DNA of 64,000 bases from Protoeuglena noctilucae (Eukaryota). The stretch is taken from the NCBI GenBank assembly GCA_958009085.1, contig OY253671.1:186001-250000 (forward strand). The letters run 5' to 3'. Positions 10,625 to 39,973 of this stretch are shown here, piece after piece. The translations under genes and the position numbers were made by a program. A model generated the notes under the pieces. It saw only the letters and a program-made list of their open reading frames with translations, did not search any database and was not told the DNA's origin. Positions within the stretch are counted from its first letter, which is position 1, and each line of letters opens with the position of its first letter.

Positions 10625-12430
10625 ATGGCGACCTCCTTCCTCGGCACCTCCATCCGCGCCCCCGTGGCCGCTGGCAAGGTGAGCTGCCGCGCTGCCCCCA
10701 CCCCCTCCCCCGCCCCCGCGCCCCCCTCCTGCGGCGCGATGCGCGCGTTTGTGGCAAGCGAGCGCGCTGCAAGGCCCCGAGCCCCTCCCCCCGCGCTCCC
10801 CGGGGCTCGGAATGGGCAGGCCTCTGGATTCTCGGCTGCCGGCCCACCCCGGGCCCCGCGCCCCCCACCCTCGCGCTTTCGAGAGCATTTCCGCGGCGGC
10901 GAGCGGGGCTTCCGCTTTCCGGAGCCCCTGGGGCGCGAGACTTGGCCATCCAGTGCCCCCCCGATTGCCTGGGATACGCCGGCCGTTATCGCCCCGGGGG
11001 CCACTCCCCGGGCAGCGGAGGCCCGCGCCCCGCTTTATCGGCATTGGAGACGCTGTCTTCGGGCGCTGAGCTCGCGGGGACCGCTCCCGCGCCCGCCCTC
11101 GGGTCGGGATCCCGGAAGGCAGGGTGCGCCCGCGGGCCCTCGACTCCGGCCCGGGCTGCGGACCGGCCCGCCAGCGGCTTTTTGACGAGCGTAGTTGTCG
11201 CGATCATGGGCGAGCGGGCCGATCGGACGGGTGTGGCGGCAGCGCACCCCGGGTCTGGGCTCCTGTGGTCCGGACCCCGCCCCCGCCTCACCCGACCTTT
11301 CCGGCCCCTCGGTTTCCTCTCCCCCCGTGCCGTGCGTGCCAGGACGCCGTTCTGACTGCGCAATCCCGTCCCCGTCGCTGCAGGGCACCCGCCAGGTGAC
11401 CCGCGCCGCCGTCGAGTTCTACGGCCCCAACCGCGCCAAGTGGCTCGGCCCCTTCTCCGAGGGCGATGTCCCCTCCTACCTGAAGGGTGAGATGCTCAGG
11501 AGGCGCACGCATCGCGTTTGAGGCTGGTGTTGCGGCACTTGGCAATTCCCGCGCCCCGCCCCCACCCCCAGGCGAGTTCCCCGGTGACTACGGCTGGGAC
11601 ACGGCCGGCCTGTCGGCTGACCCCCAGACGTTCGCCAAGTACCGCGAGATCGAGGTCATCCACGCCCGCTGGGCCATGCTCGGCGCCCTCGGCTGCGTCG
11701 TGCCCGAGCTGATAGCCAAGAACGGCGGGTCCTTCGGCGAGGCCGTGTGGTGGAAGGCCGGTGCCCAGATCTTCCAGGAGGGCGGCCTCAACTACCTCGG
11801 CAACGAGAACCTCGTGCACGCCCAGGTGAGCCCGCCACAGCCGCCGACGCAGGCACGCCAAGCCATGCTGCAAGTGTCATGGTCGGCCAGCCACACAGGC
11901 CAACAAGCCAGATGTTCACGCCGGTGATCTCTCCTCGCCTCGCAGTCCATCATCGCGACGGTGGCCGTCCAGGTCATCCTCATGGGCCAGGCTGAGGCGT
12001 TCCGCGCCGCTGGCGAGGCGCCCGGCCTTGAGGGCCTCGACTCCCTCTACCCCGGTGGCCCCTTCGACCCCCTGAACCTGGCTGACGACCCCGACACGTT
12101 CGCCGAGCTCAAGGTCAAGGAGATCAAGAACGGCCGCCTGGCCATGTTCTCCATGTTCGGCTTCTTCGTGCAGGCCATCGTGACGGGCAAGGGCCCCATC
12201 GAGAACCTGTCCGACCACCTCGCCAACCCCGGCGTCAACAACGGTGAGCGGCGCGCTGCGAGATCATGCCTGCATGCCCGGCGCAGGCGCGCTTACACCA
12301 TGCGGATGCGCCTGAGTGTTGCAGGCAGCCCATATGGCCAGCACTCGCGATGCAGAGGTCTGACCACGACCACCCTCTACCGCTCGCAGGCTTCGCCCTC
12401 GCGACGAAGTTCACGCCCGGTGGCTTCTGA
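10625..12430 (+). CDS. LHCBM: Major LHCII chlorophyll a/b-binding protein (LhcbM-a); exons 10625-10678, 11384-11486, 11572-11825, 11946-12243, 12390-12430
   Basis: [60 protein letters not shown]. All splice phases are consistent. Confidence 0.97.
10679..11383 (+). repeat. LhcbM-a first intron, homologous to LhcbM-b first intron (25390-26020, inverted)
   Basis: 10872-10951 vs the reverse complement of 25761-25840 gives 72/80 ungapped identity. Similarity is clear over ~330 nt from the donor site and patchy beyond. Confidence 0.92.
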
Positions 12431-24312: not shown

Positions 24313-26080
24313 TTAGGCGGAGGGGGTGAAGCGGGTCGCGTAGGCCCACGCTGCGGGGGCGGAGAGGAGGAAGACGTCAGCAAGGTGCGGCCTTGGATCG
24401 ACCGCCGGGCTGACGCCACCCCCGCGAGCCTGTGCGGGTGCAAGAGCGCAGTCCCATCACGGTGCAGCGCGCCTCACCGTTGTTCGCGCCGGGGTCCGCG
24501 AGGTGCTCGTTGAGGTTCTCGATGGGGCCCTTGCCCGTCACGATGGCCTGCACGAAGAAGCCGAACATGGAGAACATGGCCAGGCGGCCGTTCTTGATCT
24601 CCTTCGTCTTGAGCTGGGCGAACGTGTCGGGGTCGTCAGCCAGGTTCAGGGGGTCGAAGGGGCCACCGGGGTAGAGGGAGTCGAGGCCCTCGATGCCGGG
24701 GGCAGAGCCGTTGGCGCGGAACGCCTCAGCCTGGCCCATGAGGATGACCTGGACGGCCACCGTCGCGACGATGGACTGCGGATACGGAGAGCGATGATCG
24801 TGTTGCGGCTGCTGGCGGATCAGCCAGGCCCAGGCTCAGCCCTGGCCGCCATCTGCGCTGGCCGCCCCGGGCATGCCGTCACCTGGGCGTGCACGATGTT
24901 CTCGTTGCCGAGGTAGTTGAGGCCGCCCTCCTGGAAGATCTGGGCACCGGCGCGGAACCACACGGGCTCGCCGAAGGACACACCGTTGCCGGCGAGGATC
25001 TCGGGGGTCACGCAGCCGAGGGCGCCGAGCATGGCCCAGCGGGCGTGGATGACCTCCAGCTGGCGGTTGCGGGCGAAGGTCTCGGGGTCAGCCGACAGGC
25101 CGGCCGTGTCCCAGCCGTAGTCACCGGGGAACTCGCCTGCGGAGACCCGACCACAGCGCCCGTCAGCACTTCCTGCCGTGTGCACCACGCATCACCGCTG
25201 CGACGAAACTGCCGTCTTGCCAAGCAGCCTCTCACCCGTCAGGTACGCCGGGGGCTCGCCCGAGAAGGGGCCCAGGAAGAGGCCGCGGTTGGGGCCGTAG
25301 CCGGTCCCGTCCGAGCCGACGACCTTGGAGGCCGGCTTCTTGGCGGCCGCGCCCTTGCCCTTGGCGACGGTGCGGCGCATGGTGGTGGCCTGCGGGCGCC
25401 GGGAGCCGAGGCGGGGTGAGGGAGGGGCGCTTGACAAGGTGCCTGGCTGGCCTGCTCCGCGGCCGTGTCCCGGGCCCGATCGCCCGCGCGACACCGAAGC
25501 GCGGCACAAACGGTAGCGACGAAAGCGAGGGGCACCACGCGAAAGCCGCAGCGGCGCTGATGAGGCCGCGCGGGCTCGCCCCCCCATGTCGGGCTTCCGA
25601 GATCCCGGTCGATCGGGACCCGGCGCGGGCGCATCCCGGGCGCCACGGACGCGACAGGCGCGGCCGGATGCGGGGATGCGGCGGGGGAAGCCGTCCCCGC
25701 CGGGAAACGGCCCTCGGGGCGATAACGGCCGGCAGATCCCATGGCAATCAGGGCCCCGATGGATGGCCGTGTCTCGCGCACCAGCGGCTCCGGAAAGCGG
25801 GTGCCCCGCTCGCGGCCGCGGAAATGCTTTCGAAAGCGCGGGGGTGAGGGGCGCCGGGCCCGGGGTGGGCGGGCAGCCGAGATTGCCTGCTCATCCCGAG
25901 CCCGGGCTCGCAGAGCGCAGGGGGGGGCACTCGGGGCCTTGCAACGCGCTCGCGAGGCGCAAACGCGCACATCGCATCGCGGGAGGGGGGGCGGGTGGGC
26001 GGGGGGCGTGCACAGCTCACCTGCTTGGAGCCGGCCTTGGCCACCGTGAGCTGGCGCGAGACGGTCTGAGCGAACGACAT
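24313..26080 (-). CDS. LHCBM: Major LHCII protein (LhcbM-b, mature N-terminus RRTV); exons 26080-26021, 25389-25236, 25136-24883, 24775-24478, 24350-24313
   Basis: MRRTVAK..., [54 protein letters not shown]. Confidence 0.97.
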
Positions 26081-35960: not shown

Positions 35961-36403
35961 ACTCTGCAGTTCAGTTTTAGTAGATTGCGGCCGTGAGGGA
36001 TTCCTTGGCAGATGCACGCGTCTGGCAATGCGCACAGGGCTAGCCCGCCCTCCGTCTAGTTCTGCCGCAGATTGCGGCTTCCGTCTTTGTTGTCAGGCGA
36101 CGGATAGCTGGCCCGTCGCCCCTGCTCGCCCGAGTATCGATCGCCGCTCCTGAGGGCGTATCTAGGGGCACGGGTTCCCTCCCCCATGCGCCAGCCTTGC
36201 CAGAGCGCTGAATGCCGTTGTTCCCCCCCCGCGCGCGGACCTTCCCATGCCCCACGGCTGCCCAAGCAGCCTTGTGCGTACGTTTGAAGACACTTGCTCT
36301 GCTCTGTTTCACACTCTTATGGTCTAACGGGAGGTCGCCAGCCAGCCTGGCCCGCAGCTAGGCGGCTCGCAGTGGAGCACGGTCAGCCGTGCCACGCTCG
36401 GGC

Positions 36404-36496
36404 TCAGAAGATGCCGGCGGGGATGGAGTAGCCGTTCGTGGCGAAGTTCACGTCGCCGGGCGCAGCGAGGTGCGCGCCGAGGCAGGCGAGGGGGCC
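36404..36496 (-). CDS. Alternative (distal) terminal exon of the Lhca gene, encoding [30 protein letters not shown]
   Basis: GCAG acceptor at 36500-36497, phase 0, 31 open codons. The first 11 aa are identical to the proximal last exon but with synonymous differences. Confidence 0.85.
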   Translation of the reverse strand, partial: GPLACLGAHLAAPGDVNFATNGYSIPAGIF

Positions 36497-36675
36497 CTGC
36501 GCGTGCGACGTGGGCCGCGTGGCTTTGCTGGCTTCGCTCGCTCGCATTCAACACGCGATGGGGGCCCCCCTCGGCAGTGGGGAGAGGGAGGGAGGAGGCG
36601 CTAGTCCGTGCAAGCCCTGCACGACGGGAGGCAACCCAGCCCGAACATCAAAGAGGCCGGCCAAACATCCCCGAT

Positions 36676-38074
36676 CTACTGGCTGAGGGAGTTGAGCACC
36701 GTGGTGTTGCCGGGGTCGGCGAGGTGCGCACCCAGGCAGGCCAGGGGGCCCTGCGGCGCAACAAGGCAAGAGGTCACCTTCGCGGGGAACGACGCGTCGC
36801 CTCGCGACGGCGGTGGAGTACCCTGCCCCGGCCCGATAGCTCACCTTCCCCGTGGCGTGGTACTGGGCGAAGAAGCCCACCACGGCCACCATGGCCAGGC
36901 GGCCGTTCTTGATCTCCTTGACCTTGAGCACCTCGAGGTCACCGGGGATCACGGGGGCGAAGATGCCGCCGGGGTAGCCGGGCTCGTGGTCGGGGAGGCT
37001 GTTGTTGCTGAAGATGGGGTCCTGGTTGACCGAGTTGGGCTTGCGCCAGTCCTGCCACCGGCGGATCTCCACGTAGTGCATCAGCGCGAACTGGATGCCC
37101 AGGAGGGCCGGCACGGACATGGGCAGGTCCACCTTGCCACCGGCCTCGAAGAAGTTGACCGAGGGGTTGAAGATCTCCTGCGGGGAGGGCGCAAGGGACG
37201 CGCTCGATCGCCGATATCCCCGAGACGCGAGAAGAGGAGCGCGGGGAGGCCGGCGCGCGGCCTGGACGCGGCCGGGGCGCGAGATCGGGGGCTGGATCAG
37301 GCCGGGAGCGCCCCGAGGCCCGCTGCTCCGGCCCGCCGTCACCGCGAGCGCGCCATTCACGCGCCGAGGCACCGCTCGGGAGGGCCCTGGACGACAATCT
37401 CGGCTGGCAATCGCGCCCAGCAGACTCGCCTCCTACGAATCCCGCCAGAGCCCCCGGGAGGGCCCGGCGGGGGCCGCGGAGACTCCCCGAATGGCTCACC
37501 TGGCCCAGGATGCCCGCAGCGCCGGCCATGGCCCAGCGGCAGTGCTGGAGCTCGGCCTCCTTGAACCACGACAGGAGGGTGGCGTCGGAACCGAGGCCCA
37601 GGGGGTCGAAGCCGTAGTCACCTGCGCGCGAGAGGCGAGACGCGCGCGGAGATGTCGCACGGGAGGCGCGGCCAGGCCCGGGGAGCCCCGGCGCGGGGTC
37701 CCGCCCTGTTGCCGACACAAATCGGCCGGGCAGCTCTCCGCCCGCCTCCCCCGCCGCGCACGCGGGCGCAGGCTGCGAACGCCATCACAAACAACGCGGC
37801 GGAATGCGGGAGGGCCGACGATAGAGGCGCGCGGGGCCGAATCGGCCGAGATAACAGCCTCGACCCGGCCCCTGATTCGCGCCCGGGGAGCCCCGGGGCG
37901 AGGGCACGGGGGGTCGCGATGGCGCGGACACTCACCGGGGAGCGTGCCCGTGAGGTGGGCCGGCGCCGTGGAGCCCGGGAGCCACAGGGGACGGCTGGAC
38001 ATGGTCGCCTTGGCGCCGTTGGCCTTGACGGCCATACGGGCGCCCGTGGAGAAAGCAGAGCGAGACGCGATCAT
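36676..38074 (-). CDS. LHCA6: PSI antenna protein, Lhca6-type; exons 38074-37936, 37621-37500, 37177-36845, 36750-36676 (proximal last exon)
   Basis: [62 protein letters not shown]. The FAP.IPGDL loop is typical of Chlamydomonas-type Lhca6. Confidence 0.88.
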
Positions 38075-38163
38075 CTTCGAAGCTGAGCGGAGCTCCGGTG
38101 TTGCCGTTTCTGCCCTACCTCGCCGCCCCGCGCGCTGGATGAGCGCCCACTGGCAGATCCGAT

Positions 38164-38175
38164 CCTGACGTCAGG
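38164..38175. promoter_or_regulatory. Perfect palindrome CCTGACGTCAGG (C-box/CRE bZIP core) in the Lhca/PsaF bidirectional promoter
   Basis: 12-bp palindrome centred in the 191-bp gap between the two divergent ATGs. Confidence 0.5.
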
Positions 38176-38265
38176 CTTGCCCCGTCGCACTGGCGCGCCT
38201 GCAGCCCATCTGCGGGAAGCGCGGTGCCGTCGATCCAGAGATAGGCCCCCTTCCCACGCGGCAAG

Positions 38266-39566
38266 ATGGCGTGCGTGTCTGCTGCGAAGGTGGGCACCCC
38301 GGGAGCGTCCCGGCCCGCTGGCCGCGCCCGGGCCCGTTTCCCGGGCGCTGCGGGACAGATATTTGTGCCGGAAGCACGTTCGAAACACGGTCTTCGCTCC
38401 TTTCGATCCCCGGCCCGCCCGGGCGCGATTTGGATCGGCCCGAGTGCCCAGCCTGCGACCCATCCCTCCCCGCTCCCCCTCTGCCGCAGATCTCCGTGGC
38501 CACCCCGGTGGCGACGGTGCGCGCGCCCCGGGCGCAGCGCGCCGTGGCCTGCCGCGCCGAGAAGAAGGCCAACCTCGCGGGTGCCGCTGCCGCGGCTGCC
38601 CTCGCCGCTGGTGAGCGTGCGCGGGCGGTCGCGGCGTCTCATGCGATCATAAAGCGACCTGCTCGCCGCTTGCGGGGGCGCGGGGCCGGCGCAGGGGCGC
38701 AGATTTGACGTCGTTGGGTGTTCGGGCCCCCGCAGCCTTCACCTTCGGCGTGGTGGAGCCCGCTCGCGCGGACGTCGCCGGTCTGACGCCCTGCGCCGAG
38801 TCGAAGGCGTTCCAGAAGCGCCAGAAGAAGAGCGTGAAGGACCTGACGAAGAGGCAGGCCAAGGTGGGTCGATGGGGGGGCCGTGGGCTCTGCTTCCGGG
38901 CGTGCCGGTCTCCGATGGCACGTTCGTAGCGGATTCGGTGCGGTGGGACGGGCGCGGGGGGAATCCGACGCGGGAACGGGCCGCCCAGGGCCCCGGATTT
39001 CGCGAGTATCTGCGCCCCGCCCTCGCGCCGTGCTGCCGCGGCGGGCCACACGCTCGTTATGACGGGGATCCCTTTCGTCCCGGCGGGCAATTCCTCTCCG
39101 CACCACCCCTCGGCGCGCGAAGGGGCGGGATCGAACCCCCTGCTGGCCGTGTCCCCCGCAGTACGAGGCCGGCTCGGCCCCCGCCCTCGCCCTCCAGGCC
39201 ACGATCGACAAGACGAACGCGCGCTTCGAGAAGTACGCCAAGTCCGGCCTCCTGTGCGGCACGGACGGCCTCCCGCACCTGATCGCCGACCCCGGCCTGG
39301 CCCTGCGCTACGGCCACGGCGCCGAGGTCTTCGGCCCCACCTTCGGCTTCCTCTACGTCGCGGGCCTGATCGGCCACGCCGGCCGCGAGTACCTCAAGTT
39401 CGCGCGCGCCCAGGCCAAGCCCAACGACAACGAGATCATCATCAACGTCCCGGAGGCCATGAGCATCTTGGGCAAGAGCCTCGTGTGGCCCGTGGCCACC
39501 ATCGCCGAGTGGAACAACGGCACGCTCCTCGAGAAGGACGAGAACATCACCGTCTCGCCCCGCTAA
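38266..39566 (+). CDS. PSAF: Photosystem I subunit F, 4 exons
   Basis: [59 protein letters not shown]. Confidence 0.97.
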
Positions 39567-39973
39567 GCGGCTGAGCCGAGCGCGGTCACCGGGGCCGGTG
39601 GGGGCAGGCTGGGGAGCGCCGCTGGGGGGCGCGCAGGGTAGCCAACCGGGTCCTGGCGGCCGCGGGGGAGCGCGACCGGCCCGCGTTGCTGCGGGACGTC
39701 GCACTGTCTGACTCTTGTCATGAGGGGGCTCGGGGTGGGGCTGGGCCGCTGGGCAGGTGCCCTCGCCCAGCGTCTCCGGCCACGTAGCACGAGCCCTTCT
39801 TCGTAAATGCCACATCACTTCCCGTTGAACATGGCTAGCACGGTCAGGAGTTGCGCGGCAATCGAATCGGCACGCAGACGCCGCACAGCGGCGCCTGTTG
39901 ATGCCCGGGTGGTTCGCGTCAACAAGCGGAGAGGATCTCGCTCAAACAGCAGACAGCACTGAGAAATCACGTC

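Follow-up and report, generated by a model that had tools for sequence, protein, structure and literature searches.

The last coding exon of a photosystem I (PSI) antenna gene exists in two versions within the window, by which we mean the whole 64,000-nt stretch of DNA that was analysed, and both versions are used: in RNA, a common donor is joined to an acceptor at 36750 and to a second acceptor at 36496, and both mRNAs are present in natural populations. The account that we favour, and consider likely, is that this is a nuclear PSI antenna gene of the Lhca6-like branch in a GC-rich marine green alga, in which two competing acceptors give rise to two tail forms, probably with different neighbour contacts. 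The gene lies on the minus strand, with exons at 38074-37936, 37621-37500 and 37177-36845 followed by alternative last exon A or B, and comprises the following parts (P0004, P0005 and P0124 are database proteins and X1, X2, X5 and X7 metatranscriptome runs).

37936..38074, minus strand: exon 1, with the start codon at 38074-38072 (MIASRS...), the transit peptide and the N-terminus; all 4 runs have the joint 37621/37936, and P0004 and P0124 lie exactly within the translation of the whole exon model
37500..37621, minus strand: exon 2, region of the first membrane helix, ending ...ILGQ; joints 37621/37936 and 37177/37500 in 4 of 4 runs
36845..37177, minus strand: exon 3, beginning EIFNPS... and ending at the common donor, with GT at 36844-36843; 100% tblastn match
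36751..36844, minus strand: intron 3 of the A form, 94 nt; skipped by a joint that 3 of 4 runs contain and whose ends are CT..AC, or GT..AG when read on the minus strand
36676..36750, minus strand: alternative last coding exon A, 24 codons plus TAG; present in P0004, frameshifted in P0005; joint in X1, X2 and X5
36497..36675, minus strand: spacer, 179 nt; 3′ UTR of A-form RNA, whereas the B joint removes it within the 348-nt intron
36404..36496, minus strand: alternative last coding exon B, 30 codons plus TGA; present in P0124; joint 36496/36845 in 4 of 4 runs
36295..36403, minus strand: probably the 3′ UTR of B-form RNA; for an end close to 36295 there is a weak hint, from RNA contigs that stop at 36294 (X2) and 36297 (X5), and contigs cannot prove an RNA end
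36706..36755, minus strand: first copy of the repeat, made up of acceptor CGCAG and the opening 15 codons of exon A
36452..36501, minus strand: second copy of the repeat, made up of acceptor CGCAG and the opening 15 codons of exon B

The donor reads GGGAAG/GTGAGC, with the last base of exon 3 at 36845; acceptor A reads ...TTGCGCCGCAG/GGCCCC, with exon A starting at 36750, and acceptor B reads ...GTCGCACGCGCAG/GGCCCC, with exon B starting at 36496. Both acceptors are canonical, in phase 0 and similar to the other two acceptors of the gene (GCGCAG/G and CCGCAG/G), and the single donor, the two phase-0 acceptors and both exon translations described in the first-pass annotation are all present. 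The A-form precursor has 222 aa and the B-form precursor, with the tail ...AAPGDVNFATNGYSIPAGIF, has 228 aa; the two differ only in their last 13 or 19 residues, and all membrane helices as well as the histidine of the short lumenal helix (GAHLA) are kept in both. The open frames of the two exons, which the annotation had read as a sign of selection, are confirmed, but about half of all 30-codon frames are open at 67% G+C, so they are a weak sign taken alone. A PsaF gene in the window is arranged head-to-head with the antenna gene. The DNA runs X15-X18 contain 99% of the locus.

Evidence for the junctions came from assembled contigs of four marine metatranscriptome runs (X1, X2, X5 and X7, from three studies) placed on the window. 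The joint 36496/36845, to exon B, was observed in all four runs and the joint 36750/36845, to exon A, in three of the four, both with GT..AG ends. Contigs give no levels, starts or ends, and depth is one figure per contig that cannot rank gene parts; read in this way, the depths of the joints to exons B and A were 772.5 and 1473 in X1, 389.5 and 677.9 in X2, and 29.3 and 54.4 in X5. In X7 the joint to exon B had a depth of 83.6 and the joint to exon A was not seen, which is no proof of absence, since contigs drop rarer variants. By unitig depths, the B form makes up about 34-36% in X1, X2 and X5 (two studies), which is a rough figure only. The intron contigs of X1 have a depth of 17.5-23 vs roughly 3000 for the exons, and the signal therefore comes from mature RNA and not from DNA. 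In X1, X2 and X5, each joint has just 23 nt on its shorter side, under the 30-nt caution threshold, a concern that is lifted only by the B-joint contig of X7 (76 nt) and by the independent proteins. Specifically, tail A is found in P0004 (209 aa, from a 1115-nt contig) and tail B in P0124 (215 aa, from an 847-nt contig); these proteins are the sole two members of one 90% cluster, and both lie letter for letter within the translated exon model. Their source contigs must be spliced, being shorter than the genomic distance that separates the second Met (MAVKANG) from either stop. With both joints that the first-pass annotation had proposed to look for (36845 to 36750 and 36845 to 36496) seen in RNA contigs, and with P0004 and P0124 on record, its central proposal that one gene gives two products by choice of the last exon is borne out at the RNA level.

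LHC genes are often duplicated, and the B form could in principle come from a second gene copy, a paralogue with identical exons 1-3 and the B tail, leaving exon B of the window as an unused relic. We regard this as very unlikely, given that the B-form contig of X7 (record 23: 119 nt of exon B plus 76 nt of exon 3) agrees with the window at every base to either side of the joint and for 27 nt beyond the stop codon, that the joint falls exactly on the canonical AG at the start of the repeat, that P0124 is identical to exons 1-3 of the window over 185 residues, and that tblastn with P0124 finds within the window only two further, distant LHC genes (31% and 40-44% identity). An assembly or reverse-transcription artefact arising from the repeated 50 nt or from a conserved LHC motif would be an extremely improbable source of the B joint. 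Chimeras at conserved LHC motifs do occur, as in the database protein P0088, which changes family at KNGRLAM, and several contigs placed on 36885-36929 run into other LHC genes; here, however, the switch is at the exon boundary and not at a conserved motif, and the B joint has GT..AG ends in three studies and in an independent ENA assembly. In addition, the longest exact run common to A and B is 13 nt, so that a 31-mer graph should have been incapable of creating the joints.

We observed that A-form contigs run unbroken from 36749 across the whole spacer and into exon B, to 36469, in X1 and X2, and as far as 36535 in X5; further downstream, a 1671-nt contig of X1 continues below 36100, and the X2 and X5 contigs stop at 36294 and 36297. 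Some A-form RNA thus continues through the spacer into exon B, and it is therefore at the acceptor that the choice is made, not merely as a consequence of polyadenylation. The first-pass annotation had offered alternative last-exon choice or polyadenylation as the cause; choice of the acceptor stands, whereas polyadenylation as a simple cause does not, as A-form RNA at least partly reads into exon B. A version in which polyadenylation mainly makes the choice, with a proximal poly(A) site in the spacer rendering exon A terminal and escaping transcripts splicing to exon B as in a classical alternative last exon, is conceivable but doubtful. It would fit the X5 A-form contig, which stops at 36535 with no X5 contig crossing from the spacer into exon B, and the X2 contig of the exon B body, whose depth (308.6) is near that of the B joint (389.5) and far from the A plus B sum of about 1067; yet contig ends do not show RNA ends, contig depths cannot rank gene parts, and the X1 and X2 contigs cross the spacer without a break. 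The database contigs also differ by 268 nt (1115 vs 847), close to the 254 nt expected with common ends, a comparison of lengths alone. Competition between the two acceptors is the preferred reading. RNA structure masking the B acceptor was considered and set aside: there are 11-12-nt stretches of complementarity (I1 and I2), but the region 36440-36600 folds no more stably than shuffled sequences do (z -0.63).

Both forms score 149.2 bits with PF00504 (chlorophyll a/b-binding, LHC superfamily), whose curated cut-off is 22.3 (E 1.9e-43 over residues 24-180), and all 60 of the 60 best listed PDB sequence matches are LHCI or Lhca chains of PSI supercomplexes, that is, Lhca and not Lhcb. Among the listed solved structures, the best single-domain matches are Lhca6 of Chlamydomonas reinhardtii (6ijj chain 6 and 7dz7 chain 6) and Lhca-g of Bryopsis (6igz chain 6), at E 1.1e-84 to 3.1e-84, and in the same two Chlamydomonas entries Lhca5 follows at E 1.3e-67 to 1.6e-67 and Lhca4 at E 4.8e-58 to 6.5e-58, a ranking that upholds the Lhca6-type body of the first-pass annotation. 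Lhca1 chains are missing from the 60 best listed hits to the whole protein, and the body is not of the Lhca1 type. In our tree the body falls inside the Lhca6-type group with moderate support (SH-aLRT 82). A long (~35-residue) C-terminal extension with two Cys, ending ...PTPCFLxGLWP and carried by 55 of the 96 tree rows, is absent from both tails and equally from L002, a related metagenomic copy of the gene, and from the homologues P0006, P0007 and P0009. Since the gene lacks this Cys extension of true Lhca6, belt positions cannot simply be transferred from Chlamydomonas.

There is reportedly work on the C-terminal tryptophan of Lhca1 in heterodimer formation. Lhca1 chain 6ijj_1 ends in GANFATNGISVP plus two further residues, which confirms NFATNGxSxP as the Chlamydomonas Lhca1 C-terminus, and tail B, as a 30-residue query, aligns with this chain over residues 1-26 (E 1.6e-5) and carries the Lhca1 tail motif NFATNGxSxP. 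Across Chlamydomonas C-termini, tail B matched Lhca1 at E 1.3e-5 to 1.6e-5, Lhca7 at 1.4e-4 to 1.9e-4 and Lhca8 at 2.7e-3 to 4.4e-3. The earlier description of this tail as Lhca1-like holds for the likeness itself but not for a specificity to Lhca1, as Lhca7 and Lhca8 are nearly as good and the tails of P0007 and P0009 are similar too. From these comparisons we infer that tail A is of the Lhca6, Lhca2 and Lhca4 kind and that tail B is of the kind found in inner-belt Lhca1, Lhca7 and Lhca8. According to PMC13655171, Lhca8 forms hydrogen bonds through its C-terminal tail with lumenal helix E of Lhca7, strengthening the inner belt, and C-terminal fragments of Lhca7 and Lhca8 occupy the region where PsaN would sit. 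The inner layer is given as Lhca1-a8-a7-a3, with Lhca6 and Lhca5 in the outer belt, in PMC13655171 and PMC7889890.

Exons A and B start with a direct repeat of 50 nt (36706-36755 and 36452-36501, 86% identical, 254 nt apart), with a local-alignment score of 65 vs a shuffle mean of 20.8 and none of 2000 shuffles as high. Around this block, similarity over the 60 nt that precede the acceptors does not exceed that of shuffles (1539 of 2000 as good), and the tail parts beyond it are not clearly alike (152 of 2000 as good). The first 11 residues are identical in A and B and are encoded with four nucleotide differences, all of them synonymous (CTG/CTC twice, GGT/GGC and GCC/GCT; p about 0.007-0.010 for all four being so), and the four differing codons compare with 3.95 expected from random codon choice under the gene's own usage, at a third-position G+C of 0.95. 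Because all changes are synonymous, synonymous sites are saturated and the flanks are dissimilar, the identity of A and B appears to be held at the protein level and not to stem from recent copying. Saturated synonymous sites together with 11 identical residues point to protein-level constraint on both copies, in keeping with the first-pass annotation, which had taken synonymous-only change in the shared residues as a sign of selection. As to the origin of the second exon, the 50-nt block beats 2000 of 2000 shuffles, yet the identical residues and codon bias account for its nucleotide identity and the rest of the exons is unlike; duplication is indistinguishable here from capture of a paralogue's exon. 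Direct repeats D2 (71%) and D3 (79%), linking the tail of exon B to intron 3, were taken as chance in GC-rich DNA, as their order is swapped between the two places.

This constraint also bears on whether the difference between the two mRNAs has any function. Both could be real and yet give interchangeable proteins, or one form could be a tolerated by-product of a leftover acceptor; the related copy L002 manages without exon B, and the B share is nearly constant (about 34-36% in three runs of two studies), as constitutive acceptor competition would give. We nevertheless think this unlikely: 11 residues have stayed identical despite saturated synonymous sites, tail B retains the family motif FATNGxSxP, which a useless exon should have lost, and neither form is minor.

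The preferred reading, in which the two acceptors compete and the tails matter, can be put as a simple scheme. Use of the proximal acceptor at 36750 yields an mRNA with a reading frame that closes in exon A, and use of the distal acceptor at 36496 takes out exon A and the spacer within the 348-nt intron, so that the frame closes in exon B. Both forms are predicted to be translated, and the tails would probably give one antenna body two sets of lumenal neighbour contacts, because Lhca C-terminal tails contact lumenal neighbours in solved algal PSI-LHCI structures. A single gene supplies two antenna mRNAs whose predicted proteins are the same except for the lumenal tail; should both proteins be assembled, splicing would vary the make-up of the antenna in a manner not recognised before, and the locus would be a natural experiment on the role of the Lhca tail, the rest of the protein being identical. 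We speculate, tentatively, that one Lhca gene supplies two PSI antenna sites and that the cell shifts between them by acceptor choice, which would be antenna remodelling by alternative splicing instead of gene duplication. The A form would then bear an outer- or side-type tail and the B form an inner-belt-type tail, and the finding of B as the only form in one study and at about 35% in two others would reflect such regulation. That tail type might decide belt position is suggested solely by resemblance to Chlamydomonas subunits.

To our knowledge, the diversity of light-harvesting proteins is attributed to gene duplication, and our full-text searches of open-access papers, judged by the titles and abstract openings that were listed, revealed no LHC gene described with a comparable pair of alternative last exons. 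L002 and protein P0129 are 80-86% identical to the window gene; L002 (80% identical over residues 74-198) is the nearest tree row to it (SH-aLRT 99) and also adjoins a PsaF gene, which lies downstream on the same strand in L002 but head-to-head in the window. In L002, exon 3 is fused to an A-like tail (GNPTGTTVFDSLAQ*), the intron is absent and there is no trace of exon B, so at least one related lineage can do without the B form. The first-pass annotation had named two observations that would speak against it, loss of exon B in relatives and absence of RNA spliced to 36496; the first is seen in part, in that L002 lacks exon B and the intron, and the second is not, the B joint being present in all four runs. 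The dual-exon arrangement is thus not conserved in L002, the one related genomic copy read; in P0127, a further relative at 86% identity, an intron occupies the corresponding position. Two candidates were discarded: P0088, considered as a second alga with a swapped Lhca6 tail, turns LHCII-like inside helix A at KNGRLAM and is a chimeric assembly, not an exon choice, and the several B-like tails of locus L015, which are >1.4 kb apart or on the other strand, are probably separate genes.

The nearest homologues, P0006 and P0009 of Pedinophyceae sp. YPF-701 together with P0007, are 70-71% identical over exon 3 and are sister to the window gene and L002 in the tree (SH-aLRT 84 and 92). P0007 and P0009 have B-like tails (...NVYTNGVSLPFLN and ...NVFTNGSSVPFLAGL), and each of the three homologues has a single annotated tail. 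Because the sister clade has B-like tails only and the nearest relative an A-like tail only, the gene may preserve an intermediate state of LHC tail exchange between subfamilies, and the locus points to a possible path for the transfer of tails from one Lhca subfamily to another. Compared with Chlamydomonas Lhca6 and Bryopsis Lhca-g, the body is alike and tail A begins like Lhca6 tails (ADPFGTTIFSKA in Lhca6), but the window gene lacks the Cys extension and has a second, alternative tail. This second tail (GDVNFATNGYSIP) aligns with the C-terminus of Chlamydomonas Lhca1 given above and with HVNFATNGVSIP of Lhca7, a likeness that is limited to the tail. Tandem exon duplication with alternative or mutually exclusive use is a known general mechanism, and the gene resembles it in having two similar, putatively homologous exon starts in tandem behind one donor, of which one is translated per mRNA. 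It differs from that mechanism in that the repeated part comprises only the acceptor and 15 codons, and in that these are last exons, exon A having its own stop, so that exon B is present but untranslated in read-through A-form RNA.

The Lhca6-like photosystem I (PSI) antenna gene of the window lies on the minus strand, where a model built from RNA joints and two contained database proteins gives four exons, the last of them in two alternative versions.

38074-37936, minus strand: exon 1 of the Lhca gene (RNA joints and exact containment of two database proteins)
37621-37500, minus strand: exon 2 of the Lhca gene (same evidence)
37177-36845, minus strand: exon 3 of the Lhca gene (same evidence)
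36750-36676, minus strand: last coding exon A, 24 encoded residues
36496-36404, minus strand: last coding exon B, 30 encoded residues

The 3′ boundary of exon 3 reads GGGAAG/GTGAGC, and both candidate acceptors, each in phase 0, read CGCAG/GGCCCC. The starts of exons A and B form a 50-nt direct repeat (86% identity, spacing 254 nt) whose alignment score was reached by 0 of 2000 shuffles. This likeness is limited to the acceptor and 15 codons; between A and B, neither the intron upstream of the acceptors nor the remaining tails showed similarity above that of shuffled sequence. The coordinates, translations and synonymous differences in the first-pass annotation all proved correct.

With exon 3 as query, 990 relatives were obtained among 1234 candidates. 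The sole 100% match, P0004 (209 aa; 1115-nt contig), ends with tail A, encoded by exon A, and the one other member of its 90% cluster, P0124 (215 aa; 847-nt contig), ends with tail B, encoded by exon B. The window exons are identical to both proteins, and since the reading frame takes up more genomic sequence than either contig contains, both contigs are spliced RNA copies. Another database protein, P0005, is a frameshifted transcript that passes from exon 3 through exon A into the 3′ flank of exon A. Part of the stretch is contained in 18 of 22 listed sequencing runs, 11 of these 18 being recorded as RNA, and contigs from four marine metatranscriptome runs (three studies) were aligned to 36100-38200. 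The donor at 36845 is joined to 36496 in all four runs and to 36750 in three of them, bearing out the earlier proposal that one gene uses two last exons.

Contig (unitig) depth at the two alternative joints in four metatranscriptome runs
X1: joint 36496/36845 (to exon B), 772.5; joint 36750/36845 (to exon A), 1473
X2: joint 36496/36845 (to exon B), 389.5; joint 36750/36845 (to exon A), 677.9
X5: joint 36496/36845 (to exon B), 29.3; joint 36750/36845 (to exon A), 54.4
X7: joint 36496/36845 (to exon B), 83.6; joint 36750/36845 (to exon A), not seen

The joints to both exons have GT..AG ends, and the remaining two introns were confirmed in 4/4 runs. The shorter flank of the A and B joints is only 23 nt in X1, X2 and X5, presumably because the two forms share exon 3 and the assembly graph forks there. 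X7 has the B path only, and a single contig of that run spans 119 nt on the exon B side and 76 nt on the exon 3 side with 0 differences. The longest exact run common to exons A and B is 13 nt, so the 50-nt repeat should not be able to produce these joints in a 31-mer assembly. Intron contigs in X1 have a depth of 17.5-23 versus about 3000 for exons, which identifies the signal as mature RNA. In X1, X2 and X5, exon B accounts for ~34-36% of junctions, contig depths being a rough measure. These independent data give good support to the claim that one gene produces two Lhca mRNAs that differ in their last coding exon. Many metatranscriptome contigs match only a 40-nt stretch at 36885-36929 and then diverge (bin depth up to 48332 in X1). 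The stretch encodes a conserved LHC motif of many genes and organisms, so depth there is uninformative on the Lhca gene.

The two acceptors probably compete for the one donor, and polyadenylation may also contribute. The A-form contigs of X1 and X2 extend without a break from exon A past its stop codon and across all 179 nt of the spacer into exon B, to 36469, so that some A-form RNA, at least, has exon B as untranslated 3′ sequence, which is evidence for a decision made at the acceptor. Counting toward a proximal end for some A-form RNA, the A-form contig of X5 ends at 36535, and the exon B body of X2 has a depth (308.6) close to that of the B joint alone. Contig ends at 36294 and 36297 in two studies hint weakly at a distal RNA end, and the P0004 and P0124 contigs, judged by length alone, differ by 268 nt versus the 254 nt expected with common ends. 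With the stop codon inside the last exon in both forms, nonsense-mediated decay should spare both. A 1671-nt RNA contig of X1 (depth 263) extends from exon B (from 36498 downward) to ~1.27 kb past 36100, so the region downstream of the Lhca gene is also transcribed, by either read-through or an overlapping neighbour.

Across the 11 codons common to exons A and B there are four nucleotide differences, all synonymous, an outcome with a chance of about 0.007-0.010 under random changes. The gene's codon usage is strongly biased (third-position G+C 0.95), and the 4 differing codons observed versus 3.95 expected from a random draw of that usage indicate saturated synonymous sites. Together with the unrelated flanks and identical residues, this saturation argues that both exon starts have long been constrained at the protein level, and that neither a recent duplication nor a decaying relic is involved. 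The same pattern also makes tandem duplication indistinguishable from capture of a paralogue's last exon.

Metagenome contigs were scanned for relatives (600 stretches matched, 419 confirmed, 80 loci kept), yielding one close genomic relative, L002, with 80% identity over residues 74-198. Its exon 3 leads straight into an A-like tail (GPLACLADHLGNPTGTTVFDSLAQ, then stop) with no intron between them, and nothing resembling exon B was found in the 830 nt up to the next gene, PsaF. In P0127, a genomic-type product with 86% identity, an intron is read directly after ...HATGK, as in the window, at which point the contig stops, and exons 2 and 3 are fused; the absence of intron 3 from L002 and of intron 2 from P0127 means that intron positions vary among close relatives. 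A protein-body tree of 96 rows was built from 126 stored proteins with L002 added, after excluding 7 by choice (three exon pieces, the frameshifted P0005, and P0124-P0126) and 24 more that either lacked an identifiable tail motif or had tails shorter than 20 or longer than 75 residues. The window protein groups with L002 (SH-aLRT 99), joined next by P0007 and P0009, both with B-like tails (84), and then by P0006 (92), all within the Lhca6-type group (82). Of the two tail types, then, L002 as nearest relative carries A alone, the sister clade B-like ones alone and the window both; either the dual-tail gene is old and one tail was kept per lineage, or exon B was gained in the window's lineage. 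P0088, whose Lhca6-type body switches at the conserved KNGRLAM motif to helix A and tail of the LHCII type, was rejected as a case of exon choice and is likely a chimeric assembly in a public catalogue. A 21-kb metagenome contig (L015, 134-3752) holds three B-like LHC tails (FATNGVSLP, VATNGVSIP, FATNGVSLP), which are separated by >1.4 kb or located on the opposite strand and probably belong to a cluster of separate Lhca genes.

The window contains three antenna genes in total, and PsaF.

38265-39570, plus strand: PsaF gene, photosystem I subunit III (PF02507, E 3.4e-48 for the last exon)
about 11496-12233, plus strand: further LHC gene, matches P0124
about 24479-25137, minus strand: further LHC gene, matches P0124

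PsaF lies head-to-head with the Lhca gene, and with start codons ~190 nt apart the two probably have a common bidirectional promoter. The Lhca-PsaF neighbourhood recurs in L002 (1392-2364, compared with window 38265-39570), but there PsaF follows the Lhca gene in the same orientation; one of the two has therefore flipped with respect to its neighbour after the lineages diverged. The two further LHC genes have identities of 31% and 40-44% to P0124, and from their motifs we take them to be of LHCII type.

The mechanism is of a known kind, the alternative use of a duplicated exon start; searches of the open-access full-text literature turned up none for a light-harvesting gene. The profile of the chlorophyll a/b-binding family scores both forms at 149 bits (cut-off 22.3), and the solved structure nearest to the body is chain 6 of green-algal PSI-LHCI (6ijj_6 ‘Lhca6’, 3.1e-84), ahead of Lhca5 (1.6e-67) and Lhca4 (6.5e-58). 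A long Cys-containing extension ending ...GLWP is present in 55 of the 96 tree rows and absent from the window protein. Tail A has weak matches (best E 5.4e-3) among tails of the Lhca2, Lhca4 and Lhca6 types. Tail B alone best matches the C-terminus of Chlamydomonas Lhca1 (1.3e-5; GANFATNGISVP), followed by those of Lhca7 (1.4e-4) and Lhca8 (2.7e-3); the tail motif that the first-pass annotation had ascribed to Lhca1 does occur there but is not specific to it. In green-algal PSI-LHCI, Lhca1-a8-a7-a3 form the inner layer, and Lhca6 and Lhca5 belong to the outer belt (PMC13655171; PMC7889890). The Lhca8 C-terminal tail is described as bonding to the lumenal helix E of Lhca7 and reinforcing the inner belt, and C-terminal fragments of Lhca7 and Lhca8 as occupying the would-be binding place of PsaN (PMC13655171). 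By analogy, tails A and B may steer the same body to different neighbours.
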